Source of the DNA: Candidatus Kapaibacterium sp.
GTDB taxonomy: Bacteria > Bacteroidota > Ignavibacteria > Kapaibacteriales > UBA2268
DNA length: 64,000 bases
Direction of reading: 5' to 3'
Assembly: GCA_963665665.1 (NCBI GenBank)
Contig: OY762428.1
Span: 2,176,001-2,240,000, forward strand
Below are positions 31,881 to 56,286 of the stretch, piece after piece. The translations under genes were made by a program, and so were the position numbers. Position 1 is the stretch's first letter; every line of letters begins with the position of its first letter. The notes beneath the pieces were generated by a model that was not told the DNA's origin, searched no databases, and worked only from the letters and a program-made list of their open reading frames with translations.

Positions 31881-32990
31881 ATGAATTTCATCGATCTTAA
31901 ACGGCAATATTCCGAAATTGAGAATATCGTTAAGGAAAATATCAACAATGTTCTGGAGCACGGCCGCTATATCATGGGCCCGGAAATCACTGAACTTGAA
32001 GAATTACTTGCAAAATATTCCGGCAGAAAGCATTGTCTGGCATGCGCATCCGGTACAGACGCACTGCTTATGCCGCTTATGGCCTGGGAAATAGGCCCCG
32101 GCGATGCCGTATTCACAAGTCCTTTCACATTTATTGCCACTGCGGAAGTTGTGGGCCTGGTTGGCGCTACACCCGTTTTCGCCGATATTGACGAAAAAAC
32201 ATATAATATCGACCCGGTAAAACTGGAAGAAGCAATTATTAAAACAAAAGAAGAAGGCAAGCTAACCCCAAAAGCTATTATTCCCGTTGATTTGTTCGGA
32301 CTACCGGCAGATTATGACGCTATTCTTGCAATAGCTGATAAATACGGGCTGGTCGTTCTTGAAGACGCGGCTCAGGGATTCGGGGGAATCTACAAAGGTA
32401 AAAAGGCATGCAGCTTCGGACAGGTCTCGGCAACATCCTTCTTCCCGGCAAAGCCTCTCGGCTGCTACGGCGACGGCGGAGCTGTCTTTACAGATGACGA
32501 CGATATGAAAGAAAAGCTCGAATCCATCAGGGTTCACGGCCAGGGCCCGGACAAATATACAAATATCCGCCTGGGGCTGAACGGCAGGATAGATTCCATT
32601 CAGGCAGGAGTACTGCTTGCCAAAATGACAATATTCGACAAAGAAGGCGAACTCAGGAACAAGGTTGCTGCAAAATATACCGAAGCACTTAAAGGCAAAG
32701 TTGTTACACCTACAGTTCCCGAAGGATATACTTCGGTTTGGGCGCAGTATTGCGTGCTGGCCGACAGTGCCGAACAGAGAAAAGAAATCCAGGCAAAGCT
32801 TGGGGAAAACAATATTCCAAGCGCTATCTATTATCCCATACCGCTGCACATGCAGGAAGCTTTTGCCAGCCTGGGATATAATAAAGGAGATTTACCTGTA
32901 TCGGAAGCAGCGGCAGAAAGAATATTCGCCTTGCCAATGCATCCCTACCTGACAGATGAAGAAATCAACCAGATAGCCGAAGTTATATAA
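31881..32990 (+). CDS. DegT/DnrJ/EryC1/StrS aminotransferase (WbpE-like)
   Basis: SGTDAL, EDAAQGFG and SFFPAKPLGCYGDGG. Confidence 0.93.
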   Translation: MNFIDLKRQYSEIENIVKENINNVLEHGRYIMGPEITELEELLAKYSGRKHCLACASGTDALLMPLMAWEIGPGDAVFTSPFTFIATAEVVGLVGATPVFADIDEKTYNIDPVKLEEAIIKTKEEGKLTPKAIIPVDLFGLPADYDAILAIADKYGLVVLEDAAQGFGGIYKGKKACSFGQVSATSFFPAKPLGCYGDGGAVFTDDDDMKEKLESIRVHGQGPDKYTNIRLGLNGRIDSIQAGVLLAKMTIFDKEGELRNKVAAKYTEALKGKVVTPTVPEGYTSVWAQYCVLADSAEQRKEIQAKLGENNIPSAIYYPIPLHMQEAFASLGYNKGDLPVSEAAAERIFALPMHPYLTDEEINQIAEVI

Positions 32991-33015
32991 TCTTTCCAGC
33001 GTAATTCCTATATTT

Positions 33016-33056
33016 ATTCATCCGATGACTTTAAGTTATCGGATGAATTTTTTTTA
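33016..33056. repeat. REP-like palindrome that may double as a terminator
   Basis: ATTCATCCGATGACTTTAAGTTATCGGATGAAT plus a T tract. A sister copy lies at ~59036-59070 and a half copy at ~21745-21763. Confidence 0.7.
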
Positions 33057-33251
33057 CAGTACTGATAATTAATATGGCGAAGGACAATAATTTTAACTTT
33101 TTCCTGCCTGCATTGCCCCGGTGCGGTAATTGTCACAATATTAATAGATAGATCGGAAGATAACGCCTGCTACTTCCCCGATTAATCCAAATCATTGCCT
33201 GCAGTGAGAAAGTCTTTAAACCTCAGATTCTTAGGATTGAAAATAAGAAAT

Positions 33252-33785
33252 ATTGCTGCCTTGTTTTAAGTTAATGCTGCCTTGTTCGAAAGCATTGCCG
33301 CCTTGGTTGAAGTCATTGATGCCTTGGTCAGAGGCAAAACACCAATGTTTGACGCCATTGCTGCCTTGTTCAGAAGCAATGTACCAATGGTTGACGCTAT
33401 TGCAGCAATGTTTTGCTTTATTGCTGCCTTGTTCGAAGCTATTGTCGCCTTGTTCCAAATCAAAGCAAGAAAACCACCCCTGTATTCCCCTCCTACTTTA
33501 GGAGGGGATAAGAAGTTAAATAACATAGAATTAACTCCCCCTCCTTTCGAAGGATTTGGCAGAGTAAATGCAGCGATGTTTGAACATATTTCCCCTTTGG
33601 TCGGAATCATGGAACCCTTGTTCCAAAGTAATGCACCGAAGTTTTAACCTATTGCTGCCTTGGTCGAAGCTATTGTCGCCTTGTTCCAAATCAAAGCAAG
33701 AAAACCACCCCTGTATTCCCCTCCTACTTTAGGAGGGGATAAGAAGTTAAATAACATAGAATTAACTCCCCCTCCTTTCGAAGGA
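33252..33785 (-). repeat. Distal part of the left 21-bp-period array, including a ~135-bp direct repeat (33420-33554 / 33651-33785) carrying REP-like hairpins
   Basis: TTGCTGCCTTG-type motif recurs every 21 nt. The duplicated block contains TCCCCTCCTACTTTAGGAGGGGA and is offset by 231 nt (11x21). Confidence 0.85.
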
Positions 33786-33798
33786 GGGGGGCGGGGGG

Positions 33799-35154
33799 CA
33801 TATGCGCTAACTTAGTGAAAATAAGTAATTCATACTACTTTGCCTTTTTCGATGTCCTTCTTTTAGGCAATTAGAAACATCATCCCAGTTGTTAATACAT
33901 TGATACAAAGTAATACCGGGACTGATGATTTTCAATAAAATATCTTTAACAAATACATTTTCACGCCATTGTGATGTACTCCTTTTATCATTCTCTTTTA
34001 TTAAACCTGTAGCCCCAGGGGGAAAAACGCTCACCTTCATCGATAATAGCCTGAGTAAGGAGAGCTGTGATCATCTTAGCATAAAGCCACGCTCGTGCAG
34101 AGTTTTTATCTTTTTTTGGTAAATGCCCCAAGCCAAATTGACTTTTTAGTTTTTTAAATGAAATTTCAACCTGCCATCTCATTCTATATAATTCTAAGAT
34201 ATTATTAGAAGATATATCATTAATCAAAGAAGTCACCAAAACAATATAATCATTAAGTCCTAAAGCTGTAGAACTGATTGTCTGTTGTTTTCTAGCAAAA
34301 TTCTTTTTTGCTTTCTTTCTGGATAACTCAGCTTGCTCCTTGCTTTTTTTGATAGCACATATACGTACAGGAATCTTTTTATTTTTTGAGGAGGAGGAGG
34401 AAATATAAAATATTTTGTCAAATATTTGATCTAACTTTAAACTTTTTAATTCTTTAATAATATCAACTTTATCATTTTTACTATTATATAGTGTAAAACC
34501 TTTATGCTTATATCTGACAACAAAATTTGCTTTCTTTCCGAGAATTTCTGAAATACCCTTATAACTGCAATATGCTCTGTCAATTAAAAAAAGATCAGAA
34601 GAGTTAATTTTGAAATTAGATATAGACTCACCGACTTTTGGGCTGGTAATAATAAATTCGTCACACTTGAGGTTGAACAGATTATGGCTGTAATGAAGTC
34701 TCCAGTCAGTACCTGTTGACCCCGGCTCAGTAACAACAGACGCATCGATACATCTTACATTGAAATCCGACAGCCATTCTGGGGAATCTAATGATATCCC
34801 CCTATTATGAATCAATCCTAATGCAATCCAGCGAAGCCAATCAGCAGACGTCCTCATTTTTTTTAATAACGCAACATCTGATATATCTATATTTCTTTCA
34901 TATTTAAGCTTAGTAGCAACCACCCTCATAGAATGCCCCGTTGCTACATGCATAAGTATTGCTCGAAGTTGCTCAGAAGGTGAATCAAATGCCCTGCGAC
35001 GTTGGAAAGCCTGGAGTTCTTTAGCCTTTAATTCCCATCCCAAAGGAAGTAAGGTTGTAACTACATCCCATTCTTCTATATGCTTGTTGTACTTTTCCAT
35101 TTACAAATATAAAAAAATTATATATAAAAATCAAACACTAAGTTAGCGCTTATG
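33799..35154 (-). mobile_element. Complete IS4-family insertion sequence (1356 bp)
   Basis: 19-bp terminal IRs CATATGCGCTAACTTAGTG / CACTAAGTTAGCGCTTATG (1 mismatch), with an 11-bp target duplication GGGGCGGGGGG at 33788-33798 and 35155-35165. Confidence 0.95.
33988..35100 (-). CDS. IS4-family DDE transposase
   Basis: CIDAS, LIDRAY and the YREK motif LYRMRWQVEISFKKLK. Confidence 0.95.
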   Translation of the reverse strand: MEKYNKHIEEWDVVTTLLPLGWELKAKELQAFQRRRAFDSPSEQLRAILMHVATGHSMRVVATKLKYERNIDISDVALLKKMRTSADWLRWIALGLIHNRGISLDSPEWLSDFNVRCIDASVVTEPGSTGTDWRLHYSHNLFNLKCDEFIITSPKVGESISNFKINSSDLFLIDRAYCSYKGISEILGKKANFVVRYKHKGFTLYNSKNDKVDIIKELKSLKLDQIFDKIFYISSSSSKNKKIPVRICAIKKSKEQAELSRKKAKKNFARKQQTISSTALGLNDYIVLVTSLINDISSNNILELYRMRWQVEISFKKLKSQFGLGHLPKKDKNSARAWLYAKMITALLTQAIIDEGERFSPWGYRFNKRE

Positions 35155-35174
35155 GGGGCGGGGGGAGGTAGGAA

Positions 35175-36158
35175 GTGTCGAAAGCAATGTACCAATGGTT
35201 GACGCTATTGCACTGATGTTTGATTTTATTGCCGCCTTGTTTGAAGTCATTGATACCTTGTTTAGAGGCAAAACACCAATGTTTGATTTTATTGATGCCT
35301 TGTTCTTCTTCAAAGCCCGCCCCTTCGGGGAGGGTTTGGGAGGGGTCAGGAGCAAAGCACCAATGTTTGATTCTATTGCTGCCTTGTTCGGAGTCATTGC
35401 AGCCTTGTTTAGAGGCAAAACACCAATGTTTGACGCCATTGCACCGATGTTTGATTTTATTGATGCCTTGGTCTTCTTCAAAGCCCTCTCCTTCGGGGAG
35501 GGTTTGGGAGGGGTCAGAGACAAAACACCGATGTTCGAAGCCATTACTGCCTTGTTCTTCTTCAAAGCCCGCCCCTTCGGGGAGGGTTTGGGAGGGGTCA
35601 GGAGCAAAGCACCAATGTTTGATTCTATTGCTGCCTTGTTCGGAGTCATTGCAGCCTTGTTTAGAGGCAAAACACCAATGTTTGACGCCATTGCACCGAT
35701 GTTTGATTTTATTGATGCCTTGGTCTTCTTCAAAGCCCTCTCCTTCGGGGAGGGTTTGGGAGGGGTCAGAGACAAAACACCGATGTTCGAAGCCATTACT
35801 GCCTTGTTCTTCTTCAAAGCCCGCCCCTTCGGGGAGGGTTTGGGAGGGGTCAGGAGCAAAGCACCAATGTTTGATTCTATTGCTGCCTTGTTCGGAGTCA
35901 TTGCAGCCTTGTTTAGAGGCAAAACACCGATGTTCGAAGCCATTACTGCCTTGGTCGAAGCCATTGACGCCTTGGTTGAAGATAATGTCGCCTTGTTAGG
36001 AATTATTGTTGCCTTGTTTGGAGTCATTGACGCCTTGGTTGAAGGCAATGCAGCAATGTTTTGCTTTATTGATACCTTGTTTGAAGCTATTGCTGCCTTG
36101 TTTGTAGGCATTGCTGCCTTGTTTTGGGGTAATGATTGCTTGTGTAGCGTTGGAATCC
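35175..36158 (-). repeat. Proximal part of the left 21-bp-period array with five embedded REP hairpins
   Basis: Minus-strand unit is approximately AATGGCTTCGAACAAGGCAGC. Embedded hairpin is GACCCCTCCCAAACCCTCCCCGAAGG(GGC/AGA)GGGCTTTG. Confidence 0.9.
35296..35928. repeat. Higher-order 252-bp tandem repeat (about 2.5 apparently identical copies)
   Basis: AGGGGTCAGGAGCAAAGCACC recurs at 35341, 35593 and 35845 (period 252 = 12x21). Confidence 0.92.
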
Positions 36159-36169
36159 GGAATATTTAA

Positions 36170-36680
36170 CTGATTGTATTATTAATTAAAATTGAATTAT
36201 TAAATATATGCTCAAAATCAGTAAATATTTAAGTATTTGTAGTAAATATATTTATTTAATTATTGAATAATCATATAGATTTATAATATTAATAATATAA
36301 CTAATCAAATAAATATTTCAAATAAGACATTAATTATTGTTTCTTATAATTTCTTCTTCTTCTTTTCTAAAATATATTAATTATTCAAGTATATATTTAA
36401 TTGTCCTAACAAATTAGATATACTGATTAATTAATAGGTTAATACTAATATTTAATAGTTTATAAATTTAAATTTGTAAATCATATCAATTATTTAATAA
36501 TATATATAATGTATTTAGTTATTTATATAAATAGTTTTGTTAGATGAACTATATCAAGGCTTTGATATATTATATAAATTATTATAAATACTATATATTT
36601 AATACAAATAGTACAATATTTAGTATTTTAGATTGAATATTTGATTATCAGTTCTATCTATAGACTATTCTCATCTCTAT
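36170..36680. other. Very AT-rich non-coding spacer between the divergent arrays
   Basis: Almost only A/T with no ORF; far more AT-rich than the flanks by inspection. Confidence 0.8.
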
Positions 36681-36685
36681 CTTTG

Positions 36686-37300
36686 GGATTTCAATGCCAA
36701 ACAAGCAATCAATGAGACAGAACAAGTCATCAATGAGGCGGAACAAGACATCAGTAAGGCGGAACAAGTGAGCAATGAGGTGGAACAAGACATCAATAAA
36801 GCAGAACAAGCGTACAATGAGTCGGAACAAGACATCATTGAAGCCAAACATGCAAGTAATGAAGCCAAACAAGACATCAATGAAGCCGGACAAGTGAGCA
36901 ATGAGGCGGAACAAGCATGCAATGAAGCGAAACAAGCAAGCAATGAAGTGGAACAAGACATCAGTAAGGCGGAACAAGCAAGCAATGAGGCGGAACAAGT
37001 GAGTAATGAAGCGGAACAAGTGAGCAGTAAGTCAAACCAAGCAAGCAATGAGACAGAACAAGCATGCAATGAAGCAGAACAAGGCAACAGTAAGGCGGAA
37101 CAAGACATCAGTAAGGCGAAACAAGACATCAATAAAGCAGAACAAGACATCAATGAAGCAGAACAAGACATCAGTAATGCGGAACAAGCAAGCAATGAAG
37201 CCGGACAAGTGTGCAGTAAGGCAAACCAAGTGAGCAATGAAGCGGAACAAGTCATCAATAAGGCTAAACAAGCAAGCAATGAAGCCAAATTTCACTACAT
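36686..37300 (+). repeat. Right 21-bp-period array (about 28 units); translates as a heptad repeat (NEAEQAS) in ORF 36768-37367
   Basis: GAACAAG/AAACAAG/AACCAAG recurs every 21 nt. Unit is approximately AATGAAGCGGAACAAGCAAGC. No ATG at the head of the array. Confidence 0.9.
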
Positions 37301-37519
37301 TAAGGCCAAAGAATGCTTCAATACCTCCGGACAAGGCAGTATAAAGCCTCGCCAACAAAGCGATTAGCCCAAACATCAGGGTTTTGATTAAAAACAGCAT
37401 TGAATTAAGGAAATTATCCGGTTCATTGAAACCAGAGGATGTGGAATTAAGGCCGGCGGTTGGTTCATTGGGGTGGAAGAACGGGGGGTAAGGGCCGGAG
37501 AAGGAGGTATTATGTTGCC

Positions 37520-37795
37520 TTTCTGACGGAGCGAAGCGACCGAAGAATCCATCTTTTCTGGCAAATAATTTTAAAGAATGGATACTTCGCTCCGCTCAGA
37601 ATGACCTTCCAGCCTTATAATCGTCAAATTCAATAGCCAGGTGCTTTAGCTCGTGGATAAGGGGGGATAAGAAAAAGAATCCACCCCAGCCTGTCCCGAC
37701 TTGTCGGGAACTCGCTGCGCTCGCCAACCCTCAACGAGGGGAATTTTAAGAATCCACCCCCGCCCTTCCCCGATGCGTCGGGGCCGGCGGTGGAC
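37520..37795. repeat. Cluster of several REP-like elements downstream of a T9SS cargo gene
   Basis: CGGAGCGAAG...CTTCGCTCCGCTCAGAATGAC, TGTCCCGACTTGTCGGGAA, CCCCGATGCGTCGGGG, and a duplicated AAGAATCCACCCC. Confidence 0.65.
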
Positions 37796-40046: not shown

Positions 40047-40152
40047 GTCTAAACCGCGTTTAATTGCGTCTAAATGTAACTTCAATAATTTCAATATATA
40101 ATTAGAAACATATGTCTGAATTTGCGTCTAAACCGCGTTTAATTGCGTCTAA
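40047..40152. repeat. 27-bp direct repeat overlapping the stop of the AlbA_2 gene
   Basis: GTCTAAACCGCGTTTAATTGCGTCTAA at 40047-40073 and 40126-40152. Confidence 0.8.
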
Positions 40153-41803
40153 GTTTCCATAAAGAATTGTTCCCGGAACCAATGTACTTAATCGTTTCGT
40201 CCTTTGTATGCATCTCATAAAGTATGTTTTTAATCTTACTCCGTTTTTGATTTTCAGTTAGAATATCAGGTAGTTTTTCAAACAGTAATTCTTCAAAATC
40301 TTTTCGTGAAGCTTCAATAAAACTCTCTAAATAATTTAAGATCAATTGTTTATAATAATCTTTATCGAGCCCCTTCTGCTTTATATAATTAACTTCCTGC
40401 CCCGTTGTTAATGCTACTTTCTTAGATATGTAAAAATTAGGTTTCCTGCCCTCGATTAATTTTTTTGATTTTAGCGCTTTAATTTCAAAATCAATTAATT
40501 TCCGGCCTTTTTGAACTTTATCAAGCATTATTATTTCAAATAAGGATAGATCATGATTCTCCGATAAAGTTCTTGCATAATCAAAGTCTAATACTTTTCC
40601 GAGAATTTCAACCGAAACCCTTGATTCTTCAATTCTATAATCGGGAAGTGGAAACATTTTTTCACGTTGCAGATTGAACATTCTTTTAATCCCGCTGCCA
40701 ATGGTATCGATCATTTTCAGGTTTACCATAGCATTAGCAAGAAAAGGATTTCTATAATACTCAGTCGGAGCATCAGAATTAATTACATTTTCAATTGTTC
40801 CGGGAATAAAACTACCAAGATTAGTGAAAAGCAATCTGCCATCTTCAAACTCAACTACATTGATCTTTCCGCATAATTGATAATCCTGGTGGGCGATGCA
40901 ATTGTTTAAAGATTCCCTGATTATATAAGGGTCATATTGATCCGTTTCATCCGGAAATATTGTACCGTCTTTAATATATCTGTATTTTAAATTTCTGATC
41001 TTCGAAAAAACAGCGTCAGATGCCAGTAAAAAAGGGCAGGAAAAATGTTCGTAATCTTTCTCAATATTTTTAGAATCCTTTAAAATCCAACTGATTTTAG
41101 CAACGGCAGGCGATATAAAATGTTCTGATTCCGGTTTCCCGAGCAACAGAATGGCTGCTCTTGTAATTTTAATGCTCTTTGTTAGTTTTGCTTTGTTTAA
41201 AAATGTAGAATCATCCCAGTTGGAAATTTCTGCTTCAAGATGCTTGTGCTTGTCAGTATAGTTTTGCCGGGCTTTCAGAATAGCAACAGGGTCAAGATCA
41301 TCTATAGTGGCATCCGGGCATATTTCCGCGCTCCAGTCAAACATAATAACCTGCGATCTTATCTGTTCCAATTTGCTGATATTTAATGCTACCAGCGATT
41401 CATGCTCACGGGCATAATAATGGCCTTTGAAAGCAATGGGAAGGCCTTTCGGAGCAGGTGGTATTTGAAAAGCTACGATTCTTTTACCTTTATACTGAAC
41501 TTCGTGAACATCAATAAAAGAATGATTATTTGTTGTCTGTTGTGAAATATCATGCTTTATAGTCTGAAGAGTTCCTTGCCTGTAATTTGTTCCCCTGACT
41601 TCCTTCGTTTTGTCCTCTATACCGAATAGTATCCAGGCGCAATCCTTGTTTTTAAGATTTGCTTCATTGCTCAGCGCAGAGAAGTATTTTCCCAGATCAT
41701 CATTTGAAAACCTGTTTTCTGCTTTTTTAAATTCAACAACTTCATTCTCGTCCGGCAGGGCTAATAGATCTTCTATTATGGATAAAAGGTTCATTTCTTT
41801 CAT
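40139..41803 (-). CDS. Schlafen/AlbA_2-domain protein with HATPase_c_4 (RecG C-terminal-like) and wHTH domains
   Basis: ENEVVEFK...SALSNEAN...ILFGIED, IRESLNNCIAHQDY, YRNPFLANAM and IDTIGSGIKRM. Confidence 0.85.
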   Translation of the reverse strand: MKEMNLLSIIEDLLALPDENEVVEFKKAENRFSNDDLGKYFSALSNEANLKNKDCAWILFGIEDKTKEVRGTNYRQGTLQTIKHDISQQTTNNHSFIDVHEVQYKGKRIVAFQIPPAPKGLPIAFKGHYYAREHESLVALNISKLEQIRSQVIMFDWSAEICPDATIDDLDPVAILKARQNYTDKHKHLEAEISNWDDSTFLNKAKLTKSIKITRAAILLLGKPESEHFISPAVAKISWILKDSKNIEKDYEHFSCPFLLASDAVFSKIRNLKYRYIKDGTIFPDETDQYDPYIIRESLNNCIAHQDYQLCGKINVVEFEDGRLLFTNLGSFIPGTIENVINSDAPTEYYRNPFLANAMVNLKMIDTIGSGIKRMFNLQREKMFPLPDYRIEESRVSVEILGKVLDFDYARTLSENHDLSLFEIIMLDKVQKGRKLIDFEIKALKSKKLIEGRKPNFYISKKVALTTGQEVNYIKQKGLDKDYYKQLILNYLESFIEASRKDFEELLFEKLPDILTENQKRSKIKNILYEMHTKDETIKYIGSGNNSLWKLRRN

Positions 41804-55005: not shown

Positions 55006-56286
55006 TCACATCCCGAGCAGATTCTGCACGTATAGTTCTTCAATACCTATCTCGTTTTTCAGGAAGGCCTGTATTTCCGCTTTCTCGTGCAGTCGGATTA
55101 TTGTTGAAAATCCTTCGGCGTCCCTTGTAACGAACAGGATATTTTCCAGTCCTGCGAATTTTACTATCTCGGGGTTGTGCGTACTGGTTATTATCTGCTT
55201 GCGCGTGCATGCGTCCTTCATCATATCTATAATTTTTGATATAAGGTGCGGGTGTATCCTTCTTTCCGGCTCTTCGAATATTGCGAAGGGTTTTTTCTCG
55301 AAATAAAGCGCGACTATAAGGGCTATAATAAATATGGTGCCCTCGGACATCAGCGACGCAGGGAGGTCCTTTTGGGACTGGTATTTTTCCTTAATCACCA
55401 GCTGCAGATAGCGGTCCATGTGTTTTTCCACCCTGATCGAATCGATAAAGGGCAGCACGTCGGATACGAAATTGAAGAACATCCTTTTGCGCTCCTCGTC
55501 TTCGAGTATTCGCCGGATTACTATTGCCAGGTTTTCGCCGTTCTTTTCCAGGTCGGCTTTTGCCGCTACCGAAGCCATGTACTTGGGATACTTGGGTTCG
55601 AAATCGTATATGGTTATATCGTGAATGTATCGCGCCACTTTTTCGAAGGGGAACATGTAGAATATCGGCGATTCCAGAATCAGCACACGTGACTGCTTTT
55701 CCTGCAGGAATTTCAGCATATCTTTTATCAGCGGGAACAGCGAGTTGTGCGAAACCGGGAATTCCCCGTCCGGGCGGAAATCAATCGAAGGTTTGCCACT
55801 GTCATTTTTTATCTCTAAGCTACCGGTGCAAATATAATTTTCCTCATTCGGCAGGGTTTCGATATTATCGGAGCGGTGAAAATCGAAAACAGCCTCCATC
55901 CTGTCTTTTTTAATAGCGTATTCCTTGTCCTTTGCCGGAAAATTCAGCGAGAAGGAGTAGTTAAACTTTTTCAGCCGCAGGTTTATAGGCCCGGCTTCGG
56001 TGTCGCGGCTGACTCCATAGGCCTTCAGTGGCTCTATTTCAATACACAGGCTGAGGTCGTCGTTTTTCTTCCTCAGGTTTATATTCCGCACGTAGTCCGA
56101 GCCGCCCTGCATCGATATAGCGTTTTCCAGCCCGTGGTAAACAATATCCCTTACAAACCTGAAAACGGACAGCAGGTTGGATTTCCCGGCGCCGTTAGGC
56201 CCAATCAGCACATTGAAATTGTTCAGGCCTATACTGATATCTCTGAAACTCTTGAAGTTCTTAATTTTTAATTTTTTCAGCAGCAT
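55006..56286 (-). CDS. ABC-type AAA_21 ATPase (AbiEii/OLD/RecF-like)
   Basis: IKNFKSF, GPNGAGKSN, signature MSEGT, Walker B FEEPE and H-loop STHNP. Confidence 0.9.
   Translation of the reverse strand: MLLKKLKIKNFKSFRDISIGLNNFNVLIGPNGAGKSNLLSVFRFVRDIVYHGLENAISMQGGSDYVRNINLRKKNDDLSLCIEIEPLKAYGVSRDTEAGPINLRLKKFNYSFSLNFPAKDKEYAIKKDRMEAVFDFHRSDNIETLPNEENYICTGSLEIKNDSGKPSIDFRPDGEFPVSHNSLFPLIKDMLKFLQEKQSRVLILESPIFYMFPFEKVARYIHDITIYDFEPKYPKYMASVAAKADLEKNGENLAIVIRRILEDEERKRMFFNFVSDVLPFIDSIRVEKHMDRYLQLVIKEKYQSQKDLPASLMSEGTIFIIALIVALYFEKKPFAIFEEPERRIHPHLISKIIDMMKDACTRKQIITSTHNPEIVKFAGLENILFVTRDAEGFSTIIRLHEKAEIQAFLKNEIGIEELYVQNLLGM

Follow-up and report, generated by a model that had tools for sequence, protein, structure and literature searches.

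A multi-copy family of paired 21-bp repeat arrays between the genes of a Candidatus Kapaibacterium

Repeats dispersed through intergenic DNA are known in several forms, such as the repetitive extragenic palindromes and bacterial interspersed mosaic elements (REP/BIME), the miniature inverted-repeat transposable elements (MITEs) and the mycobacterial interspersed repetitive units (MIRUs), the last of these with a unit size of 40-100 bp. The foldback elements of Drosophila carry long inverted arms of short tandem repeats that either abut or enclose a central non-repeated loop, and in iteron plasmid origins and repeat-type centromeres direct repeats about two helical turns apart lie beside an AT-rich stretch. 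The locus considered here lies in a 64,000-nucleotide window (the whole stretch analysed, 2.176-2.240 Mb of the chromosome) of Candidatus Kapaibacterium sp. (assembly GCA_963665665.1, contig OY762428.1) and consists of two arrays of 21-bp units, here termed L-type and R-type, that face away from one another across an AT-rich core. A lag-21 scan identified 87 loci of this periodicity, the present one included, which together occupy 52,833 bp or 0.97% of the 5.46-Mb closed chromosome. The reading favoured here, and judged somewhat likelier to be right than wrong, is that these loci form a lineage-specific, multi-copy, composite and probably non-coding family of intergenic minisatellites remodelled in a 21-bp register.

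The family resembles MIRU minisatellites and REP/BIME mosaics in kind, not in anatomy. MIRUs are dispersed bacterial minisatellites (PMC3635867), and the likeness lies in a single family of tandem repeats that recurs at numerous intergenic positions in a chromosome, with copy number differing from site to site. The present family differs in its 21-bp unit, in its oppositely oriented pairs with fixed flanking modules, in the 527-bp core found in 16 members, in occupying about 1% of the genome and in that nearly all tandem repeats share one period. The REP/BIME mosaic elements of enterobacteria and pseudomonads, which occur with RAYT transposases, are portrayed as composite extragenic modules in preferred orders, common at the 3' ends of genes and targeted by insertion sequences (PMC2817692, PMC1525189); here too an extragenic multi-copy mosaic is found, with G+C-rich hairpin modules flanking the arrays and an IS4-family insertion sequence (IS) within one of them. 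In contrast to those elements, however, the bulk of the present family is non-palindromic 21-bp direct repeat, hairpins are confined to the flanking modules and alternating palindromic units of 20-40 bp are absent. The 37 loci at which the arrays abut and the 16 that bear a core parallel the loop-less and looped copies of foldback elements, but the arms here are two fixed types with different outer modules, the host is a bacterium and there is no associated transposase. Moreover, the arm complementarity of a MITE or foldback transposon is lacking, given that the arms are about 59% complementary (identity of R to reverse-complemented L of 0.589 at the same locus and 0.581 across loci) and fold back poorly. 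A long hairpin or double-stranded RNA between the arms was rejected because the arms lack same-locus covariation. What sets the family apart from the known dispersed repeats is the opposed pair of arrays with fixed end modules and, in a sixth of the loci, an AT-rich centre of invariant length. The structure is real, and is more remarkable for being a genome-wide family than it would be as a lone locus. A literature search of limited depth found no description of such a family, nor of a near-universal 21-bp tandem-repeat period in a bacterial chromosome.

Within the window, the two outward-facing arrays, the left one interrupted by an IS, were first noticed in a sequence-only reading and were borne out by Tandem Repeats Finder (TRF) and by self-matching. 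TRF places the right array at 36700-37282 with period 21, 27.8 copies and 72% matches, and its self-match is 0.70-0.73 at the ten best lags, all of them multiples of 21, and 0.29 at other lags. The left array is formed of minus-strand 21-bp units from 36158 to ~33250 with higher-order periods of 84 and 252, the latter recovered by TRF at 2.7 copies and 97% matches. Modules inserted in it are offset by 231 and by 168/84/168/84 bp, in agreement with the earlier remark that every larger offset (84, 168, 231, 252) is a multiple of 21. Each array begins with a 26-base head, and 22 of the 26 bases are equal, as had been noted, between 36686-36711 and the reverse complement of 36133-36158. The intervening ~520 bp had been described as almost pure A/T; an A+T-rich core of 527 bp is indeed present, but at 85.4% A+T it is not near-pure, and it contains no run of A or T of five or more.

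A search of the whole genome for the head, with up to six substitutions allowed, returned 33 matches, and 32 of these form 16 pairs, every pair exactly 528 bp apart, so that the divergent architecture of the window recurs at 16 loci. The 16 cores with their heads align over 608 columns without a single gap column at 78-95% identity (mean 87.7%), and a genome search found the full core at those 16 loci alone. Classified by motif, the 87 loci comprise 37 with abutting R and L arrays, 15 with the core, 18 and 15 with other 21-bp units and two with L units only, and a tail of ~230 bp, beyond the R-type array, is common to 53 of them. The usual layout runs from the tail through the R array and an L array in opposite orientation to one or more hairpin modules, with the core added in loci of the window's type. 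All 87 sit between long open reading frames (ORFs), 36 of them in gaps between convergent genes, compared with 527 of the 3502 gaps overall (15%). The period extends beyond these motifs: 111 of the 124 tandem-repeat stretches in the chromosome have a period of 21, 42, 63 or 84, the smallest period being 21 in 89 stretches, 42, 63 or 84 in 22, and another value (4 to 99) in the remaining 13. The register is strict: of 597 steps between successive L units, 595 span a multiple of 21. Array size ranges from 6 to 27 units, two adjacent duplicate loci have 7 and 8 units, and R units are homogenised locally (91% identity within an array vs 78% between arrays); L units are 72% identical within an array and 69% between arrays, and so are without local homogenisation.

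At abutting loci (e.g. L019, 870-880) the L/R junction is the palindrome GAACATGTTC, which holds an ATG on both strands and at which both inward frames stop within a few codons. A degenerate, core-like AT-rich stretch lies at 2032443-2034379 (L054), adjoining yet another repeat array. The possibility that the core is the remnant of a gene-bearing element was set aside, as the sole 1.5-kb split of core-like DNA is an IS3-type insertion (orfA/orfB) with no cargo gene.

Open frames prove nothing as to whether the arrays are coding, because four of the six frames are nearly stop-free in both array types. Variation among units, which the sequence-only reading had suggested examining by codon position, gives counts near neutral expectation: among distinct within-array variants, synonymous changes number 80 in the R outward frame against 71.8 expected and 61 in the R inward frame against 85.8, and compared with the neutral expectation no purifying selection is seen in any of the six frames. 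The scores for relative synonymous codon usage (RSCU) are -0.53 (R) and -0.15 (L) outward and 0.016 (R) and 0.009 (L) inward, vs 0.134 +/- 0.064 for real genes; the inward values thus lie about two standard deviations under real genes, and the R outward frame uses the rarest synonymous codons of the genome. In the tail, conservation is even across both candidate ORF ends. Neither an intact start-bearing ORF at most copies, nor an excess of synonymous change, nor homologues elsewhere, as would be expected of coiled-coil genes, were found.

The family belongs to no protein or RNA family in the libraries searched (Pfam, NCBIfam, Rfam, PDB and collections of 5.8 and 1.84 billion proteins), in line with the earlier remark that no described element was recognised in it. 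On the array frames, Pfam, NCBIfam and PDB gave generic coiled-coil noise only; the Pfam family Alanine_zipper exceeded its whole-protein cut-off (27.3 vs 23.1 bits), though not in any individual stretch. Neither the R frame of the window nor the joint L+R frame has protein homologues, the R inward frame had one match, to an unrelated repeat, and none of ten exact protein look-ups was successful. A search with the IDALVEV frame, the inward frame of L, gave 87 matches; among the 20 examined, 18 proved to be heptad repeats with no relation to the arrays, and the other two, the public sequences P0024 and P0050, were translated from arrays of this kind. No Rfam match reached its gathering score, the best being MIR815 at 22 bits vs 63 (E = 0.94). 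Structured RNA in the tail was likewise rejected, as the consensus fold is weak on both strands and no conserved fold was found on either (alifold -1.0 and -9.6 kcal/mol over 215 nt); the fold of the core (z = -3.2 and -1.5 vs mononucleotide shuffles) is not persuasive. Any function of the family would presumably be exercised as DNA and not as protein.

A full member comprises, in order, a tail of ~230 bp, an R-type array, an opposite L-type array and at least one G+C-rich hairpin module, with, in the 16 members that include the one in the window, a 527-bp AT-rich core between the arrays. As to how the family may have arisen, the whole composite would have been copied to many intergenic sites, presumably through transposition or recombination by way of some agent, and the arrays at each site may then have grown, shrunk and homogenised in a 21-bp register via slipped-strand mispairing or unequal exchange.

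The array loci are intermixed with other small repeats, namely a 100-bp palindromic repeat, hairpin modules and the motif WWCCACCCC. The palindromic repeat (GTCATTCTGA...GGATTCTTCGG type) has at least 70 near-full genome copies and stands often, not always, beside the tail. WWCCACCCC forms the start of several different small repeat modules and occurs 336 times in the genome vs 43 for the reversed motif; in the window it lies at 33472, 33703, 37470 (-), 37679 and 37752, all five within the locus, where 1.28 would be expected by chance, and it might act as a common recognition or target site. A lone Y1-transposase (IS200/RAYT-like) gene is situated at 1.82 Mb (1821817-1822161; PF01797 at 75.7 bits), with other short hairpin repeats (GCTCCGTAGGAGC, CCGCCCCTACGGGGC) on either side of it that are also found beside some array loci. 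No link between this transposase and the 21-bp arrays was shown.

A number of observations weigh against a mobile, non-coding minisatellite family. First, no terminal inverted repeats, target duplication of the whole composite, empty site or mobilising gene were found, the only terminal feature seen at module ends being the 7-bp motif CCACCCC in inverted orientation. Second, codon log-odds are 0.29 for the R inward frame (LTEHLVD type) and 0.22 for the L inward frame (IDALVEV type), where real genes give 0.28 in their own frame and -0.57 to -1.5 in the others. Third, the L arrays have a 3-bp periodicity of G/purines, which reaches the 95th percentile or more in 52-59% of 44 sub-windows. Fourth, the 21-bp phase is maintained by both kinds of module that interrupt L arrays (17 of 18 and 7 of 7), 18 of 38 copies of the big hairpin module have the IDALVEV frame open, and that frame is called as a gene in both P0024 and P0050. 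Finally, stop codons among variants are below expectation in several frames, for example 2 vs 15.9.

The log-odds, the 3-bp periodicity and the phased, partly open modules also argue for the reading ranked second, which is considered unlikely: that the arrays encode heptad-repeat proteins in the inward direction, or did so until a recent decay. Translation of the R array would follow the minus strand of the window, from an ATG in the tail through a hydrophobic N-terminus (MFGL...LAGG) into LTEHLVD / FIDVLFR heptads, and that of the L array the plus strand, as IDALVEV heptads, both converging on the junction or the core. It is consistent with this that inward RSCU is better than outward, that both frames stop at the junction, and that substitutions in the tail, read by eye, are conservative (IELLFG / IEAFFG / IEALFG / IEVLFS). 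Units of two other genera and of a Planctomycetaceae metagenome-assembled genome (MAG) also have, by eye, the pattern [DE]-x-L-hydrophobic-[DEG]-hydrophobic-[IT]; however, the argument from this pattern cuts both ways, because the genetic code is built such that a hydrophilic heptad, once reverse-complemented, reads as a hydrophobic one. Against inward genes stand the frequent stops: codon 12 of the R inward frame is TAA in ~36 and TAT in ~14 of the 53 tails (an alignment read by eye, not a scripted count), and TAA is frequent in the L inward frame, where it accounts for almost all in-frame stops and falls in many of the matches. Furthermore, synonymous variants in the R inward frame are fewer than neutral expectation, RSCU remains under that of real genes, the R inward query retrieved nothing related, and homologues are limited to the two translations of arrays among the 20 matches examined. 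One of these, P0024, is a singleton from one contig and is 94% identical to a locus of this genome, its closest copy here, that bears a TAA inside the match.

The variable codon of the tail corresponds to 37341-37343 (-) of the window, where the minority TAT is present. Recoding of TAA, which the TAA/TAT polymorphism and the near-exclusive use of TAA among stops had suggested, was set aside as unlikely because ordinary genes here end in TAA (e.g. the gene ending at 32990).

It is possible, although a shade less probable than inward genes or their remains, that the arrays are a working DNA scaffold, in which units of two helical turns present conserved bases (T..A....AA.CAAG in the R unit) on one face of the helix to a protein that binds or wraps DNA, for example a topoisomerase or a nucleoid protein, with the fixed-length AT-rich core as an easily melted or flexible centre. 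The strict register of the L units, the inserted modules with lengths in multiples of 21, the enrichment of loci between convergent genes and the maintenance of a 21-bp period across unrelated units, both here and in another genus of the family Candidatus Kapaibacterium belongs to, are consistent with such a role, as is the constant length of the core, without gaps in 16 copies at ~12% divergence. However, no 10.5-bp sub-periodicity of A/T or of AA/TT-type steps was detected (5-6% of 183 sub-windows reach the 95th percentile in the k=2 component, the rate expected under the null), no protein that might bind the arrays was identified, and the orientation of the arrays with respect to replication shows no significant bias (31-34 of 53, p 0.05-0.27). 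The scarcity of indels was also weakened as proof of constraint on the core: a control small repeat has 8 distinct indels per 843 substitutions and the core 1 per 644, and constant core length is weak evidence because indels are rare in other small repeats here too. A bolder form of the idea, and more doubtful again, is that the ~90-110 phase-locked arrays, including the 16 with a core, constitute a chromosome-wide architectural system. If true, tracts of two-helical-turn units would be used by a DNA-wrapping or nucleoid protein, for instance to absorb supercoiling between convergent transcription units, and would amount to a bacterial analogue of satellite-type structural DNA, with no described equivalent.

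The remaining explanations, beyond the minisatellite family, the inward genes and the phased scaffold, are all unlikely. A reading of the locus as two divergent, repeat-containing non-coding RNAs, with promoters in the core driving transcription outward, is very improbable. The AT-rich core is conserved, and directly beside the right head stands a match to TAnnTTTG, which we take to be the -7 promoter box of Bacteroidota (window, TATCTTTG; consensus, TACCTTTG). However, two positions of this box are variable (in 8 and in 3 of the 16 copies), no counterpart of it is present on the left, a conserved fold is missing from the tail, Rfam gave no match, and 37 abutting loci have no core at all. Barely more than a faint chance, and slightly less than for the RNA pair, is given to two divergent genes read outward for hydrophilic coiled-coil proteins (NEAEQDI / SKVNQVF; NDFDQGI), as in the cradle of coiled-coil genes that the sequence-only reading had envisaged. 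The a and d positions follow the classical coiled-coil pattern, abutting loci offer the junction ATG on both strands, a conserved end in FNEAKFHYIKAKQ is followed by a stop, stops among variants are depleted as given above, and R units vary somewhat more at third codon positions. The idea is nevertheless weakened because the R outward frame has the least gene-like codon usage (log-odds of -0.17 in addition to the RSCU quoted) and because an ATG is absent at all eight core-type loci where the frame spans the array; a ninth core-type row, g3848562, is shortened to 14 codons by a stop and lies outside this count. The right frame of the window, open for 240 codons, lacks an ATG and the left is interrupted by TAA at codon 54, both as reported at the outset, conservation of the tail continues ~190 bp beyond the stop, and no homologues were found.

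An iteron-type replication origin or partition site, which had been among the possibilities named in the sequence-only reading and which the resemblance of 21-bp direct repeats beside an AT-rich stretch to plasmid iteron origins would favour, is effectively refuted by copy number (16 identical architectures and 87 dispersed arrays in one chromosome, with tens of units per array vs a handful), by the lack of any DnaA box with up to one mismatch in 35155-37651, by the lack of rep, par or initiator genes among the 36 window ORFs scanned with Pfam, and by a cumulative GC-skew minimum at 1.74 Mb while the locus lies at 2.21 Mb, away from the skew switch. The same 36 ORFs include no Cas family and the units run head to tail with no spacers between them, so that the earlier exclusion of CRISPR stands. 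Overall, the interpretation given in the sequence-only reading is partly supported.

Outside this genome, the tail was found in none of 40 relatives, 34 of which are at least 90% complete, and its pattern in no metagenome contig. A generic 21-bp array pattern was found in 9 of 129 other genomes of the same taxonomic family, two of them with L-like units, and an L-like pattern in 2 of 185,579 species-level genomes, a Candidatus Kapaibacterium MAG and the Planctomycetaceae MAG, as well as in one metagenome contig. Intergenic tandem repeats of Planctomycetota are described as hotspots of structural variation (PMC9426551). The arrays of the Planctomycetaceae MAG share the 21-bp period of the present family, with a unit (ATTGAC...TTGGT) close to the L unit and lying among hairpin repeats; they differ in being short and at contig ends only, and no tail, core or paired architecture was found there. 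In another genus of the same family as the present genome (L044, L045, L036), three different 21-bp arrays stand side by side per locus; their units are unrelated in sequence, the period of 21 and not the sequence being shared, and one locus has 7-bp repeats.

Because 21 bp corresponds to a protein heptad as well as to two turns of the DNA helix, this family provides ~90 natural replicates in which to ask which constraint holds the register, and whether such repeats are passengers, gene nurseries or chromosome architecture. In practical terms, array loci break short-read assemblies and tempt gene callers into false ORFs. Contigs of two short-read runs (X1 and X2), possibly from the source sample, are identical to 32000-33322, 33799-35154, 36749-36996 and 36997-37230 of the window, the second being a contig of exactly the IS at a depth of ~4x, and no contig among those of four short-read runs spans the whole locus; the contigs of a near-identical strain (X4 and X5) are heavily fragmented.

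Table 1. Features of the array locus, in window coordinates
Feature	Position	Strand	Remarks
Distal part of left (L-type) 21-bp array	33250-33462	-	TRF 33275-33403, period 42/21; sequence reading
Big hairpin module, copy 1	33463-33580	+	Degenerate 3' half; begins AACCACCCC at 33472
L-type units separating the two hairpin modules	33581-33693	-	
Big hairpin module, copy 2	33694-33798	+	Two G+C-rich stem-loops (one at 33768-33790); split by the IS within a G-run
IS4-family insertion sequence	33799-35154	-	Transposase ORF 33988-35100; inverted ends GCGCTAACTTAGTG
Hairpin module copy 2, remaining piece right of the IS	35155-35180	+	
Proximal left array	35181-36132	-	252-bp higher-order repeat with five in-phase small G-rich elements
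Left head, first unit of left array	36133-36158	-	L-type (GGATTCCAACGCTACACAAGCAATCA)
Conserved AT-rich core	36159-36685	.	527 bp; 85.4% A+T; longest ORF at most 34 codons
Right (R-type) 21-bp array	36686-37285	+	~28 units; first unit is the right head, 36686-36711
Conserved tail beside R arrays	37286-37510	+	~230 bp; outer end has TTCCACCCC at 37470-37478 (-)
Separate palindromic small repeat, often adjoining the tail	37521-37620	.	~100 bp; 70 near-full copies aligned

The features of the locus are collected in Table 1. The big hairpin module is ~120 bp long and its two copies are offset by 231 bp, and the small G-rich elements of the left array, of 42 bp each, are at 35322, 35490, 35574, 35742 and 35826. 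The IS was identified by NF033592 at 140.8 bits (cut-off 115) and by Pfam DDE_Tnp_1, and the G-run of the hairpin module is duplicated on either side of it. Seven near-identical copies of this element are present in the genome, with 15 differences over 9492 aligned sites, and others among its copies adjoin hairpin modules at array loci, e.g. near 996.8 kb and 2158.4 kb. Elsewhere in the window are two possible defence-type genes, one at 40139-41803 with Schlafen AlbA_2 and HATPase_c_4 domains and one at 55006-56286 for an AAA_21 (AbiEii-like) ATPase.

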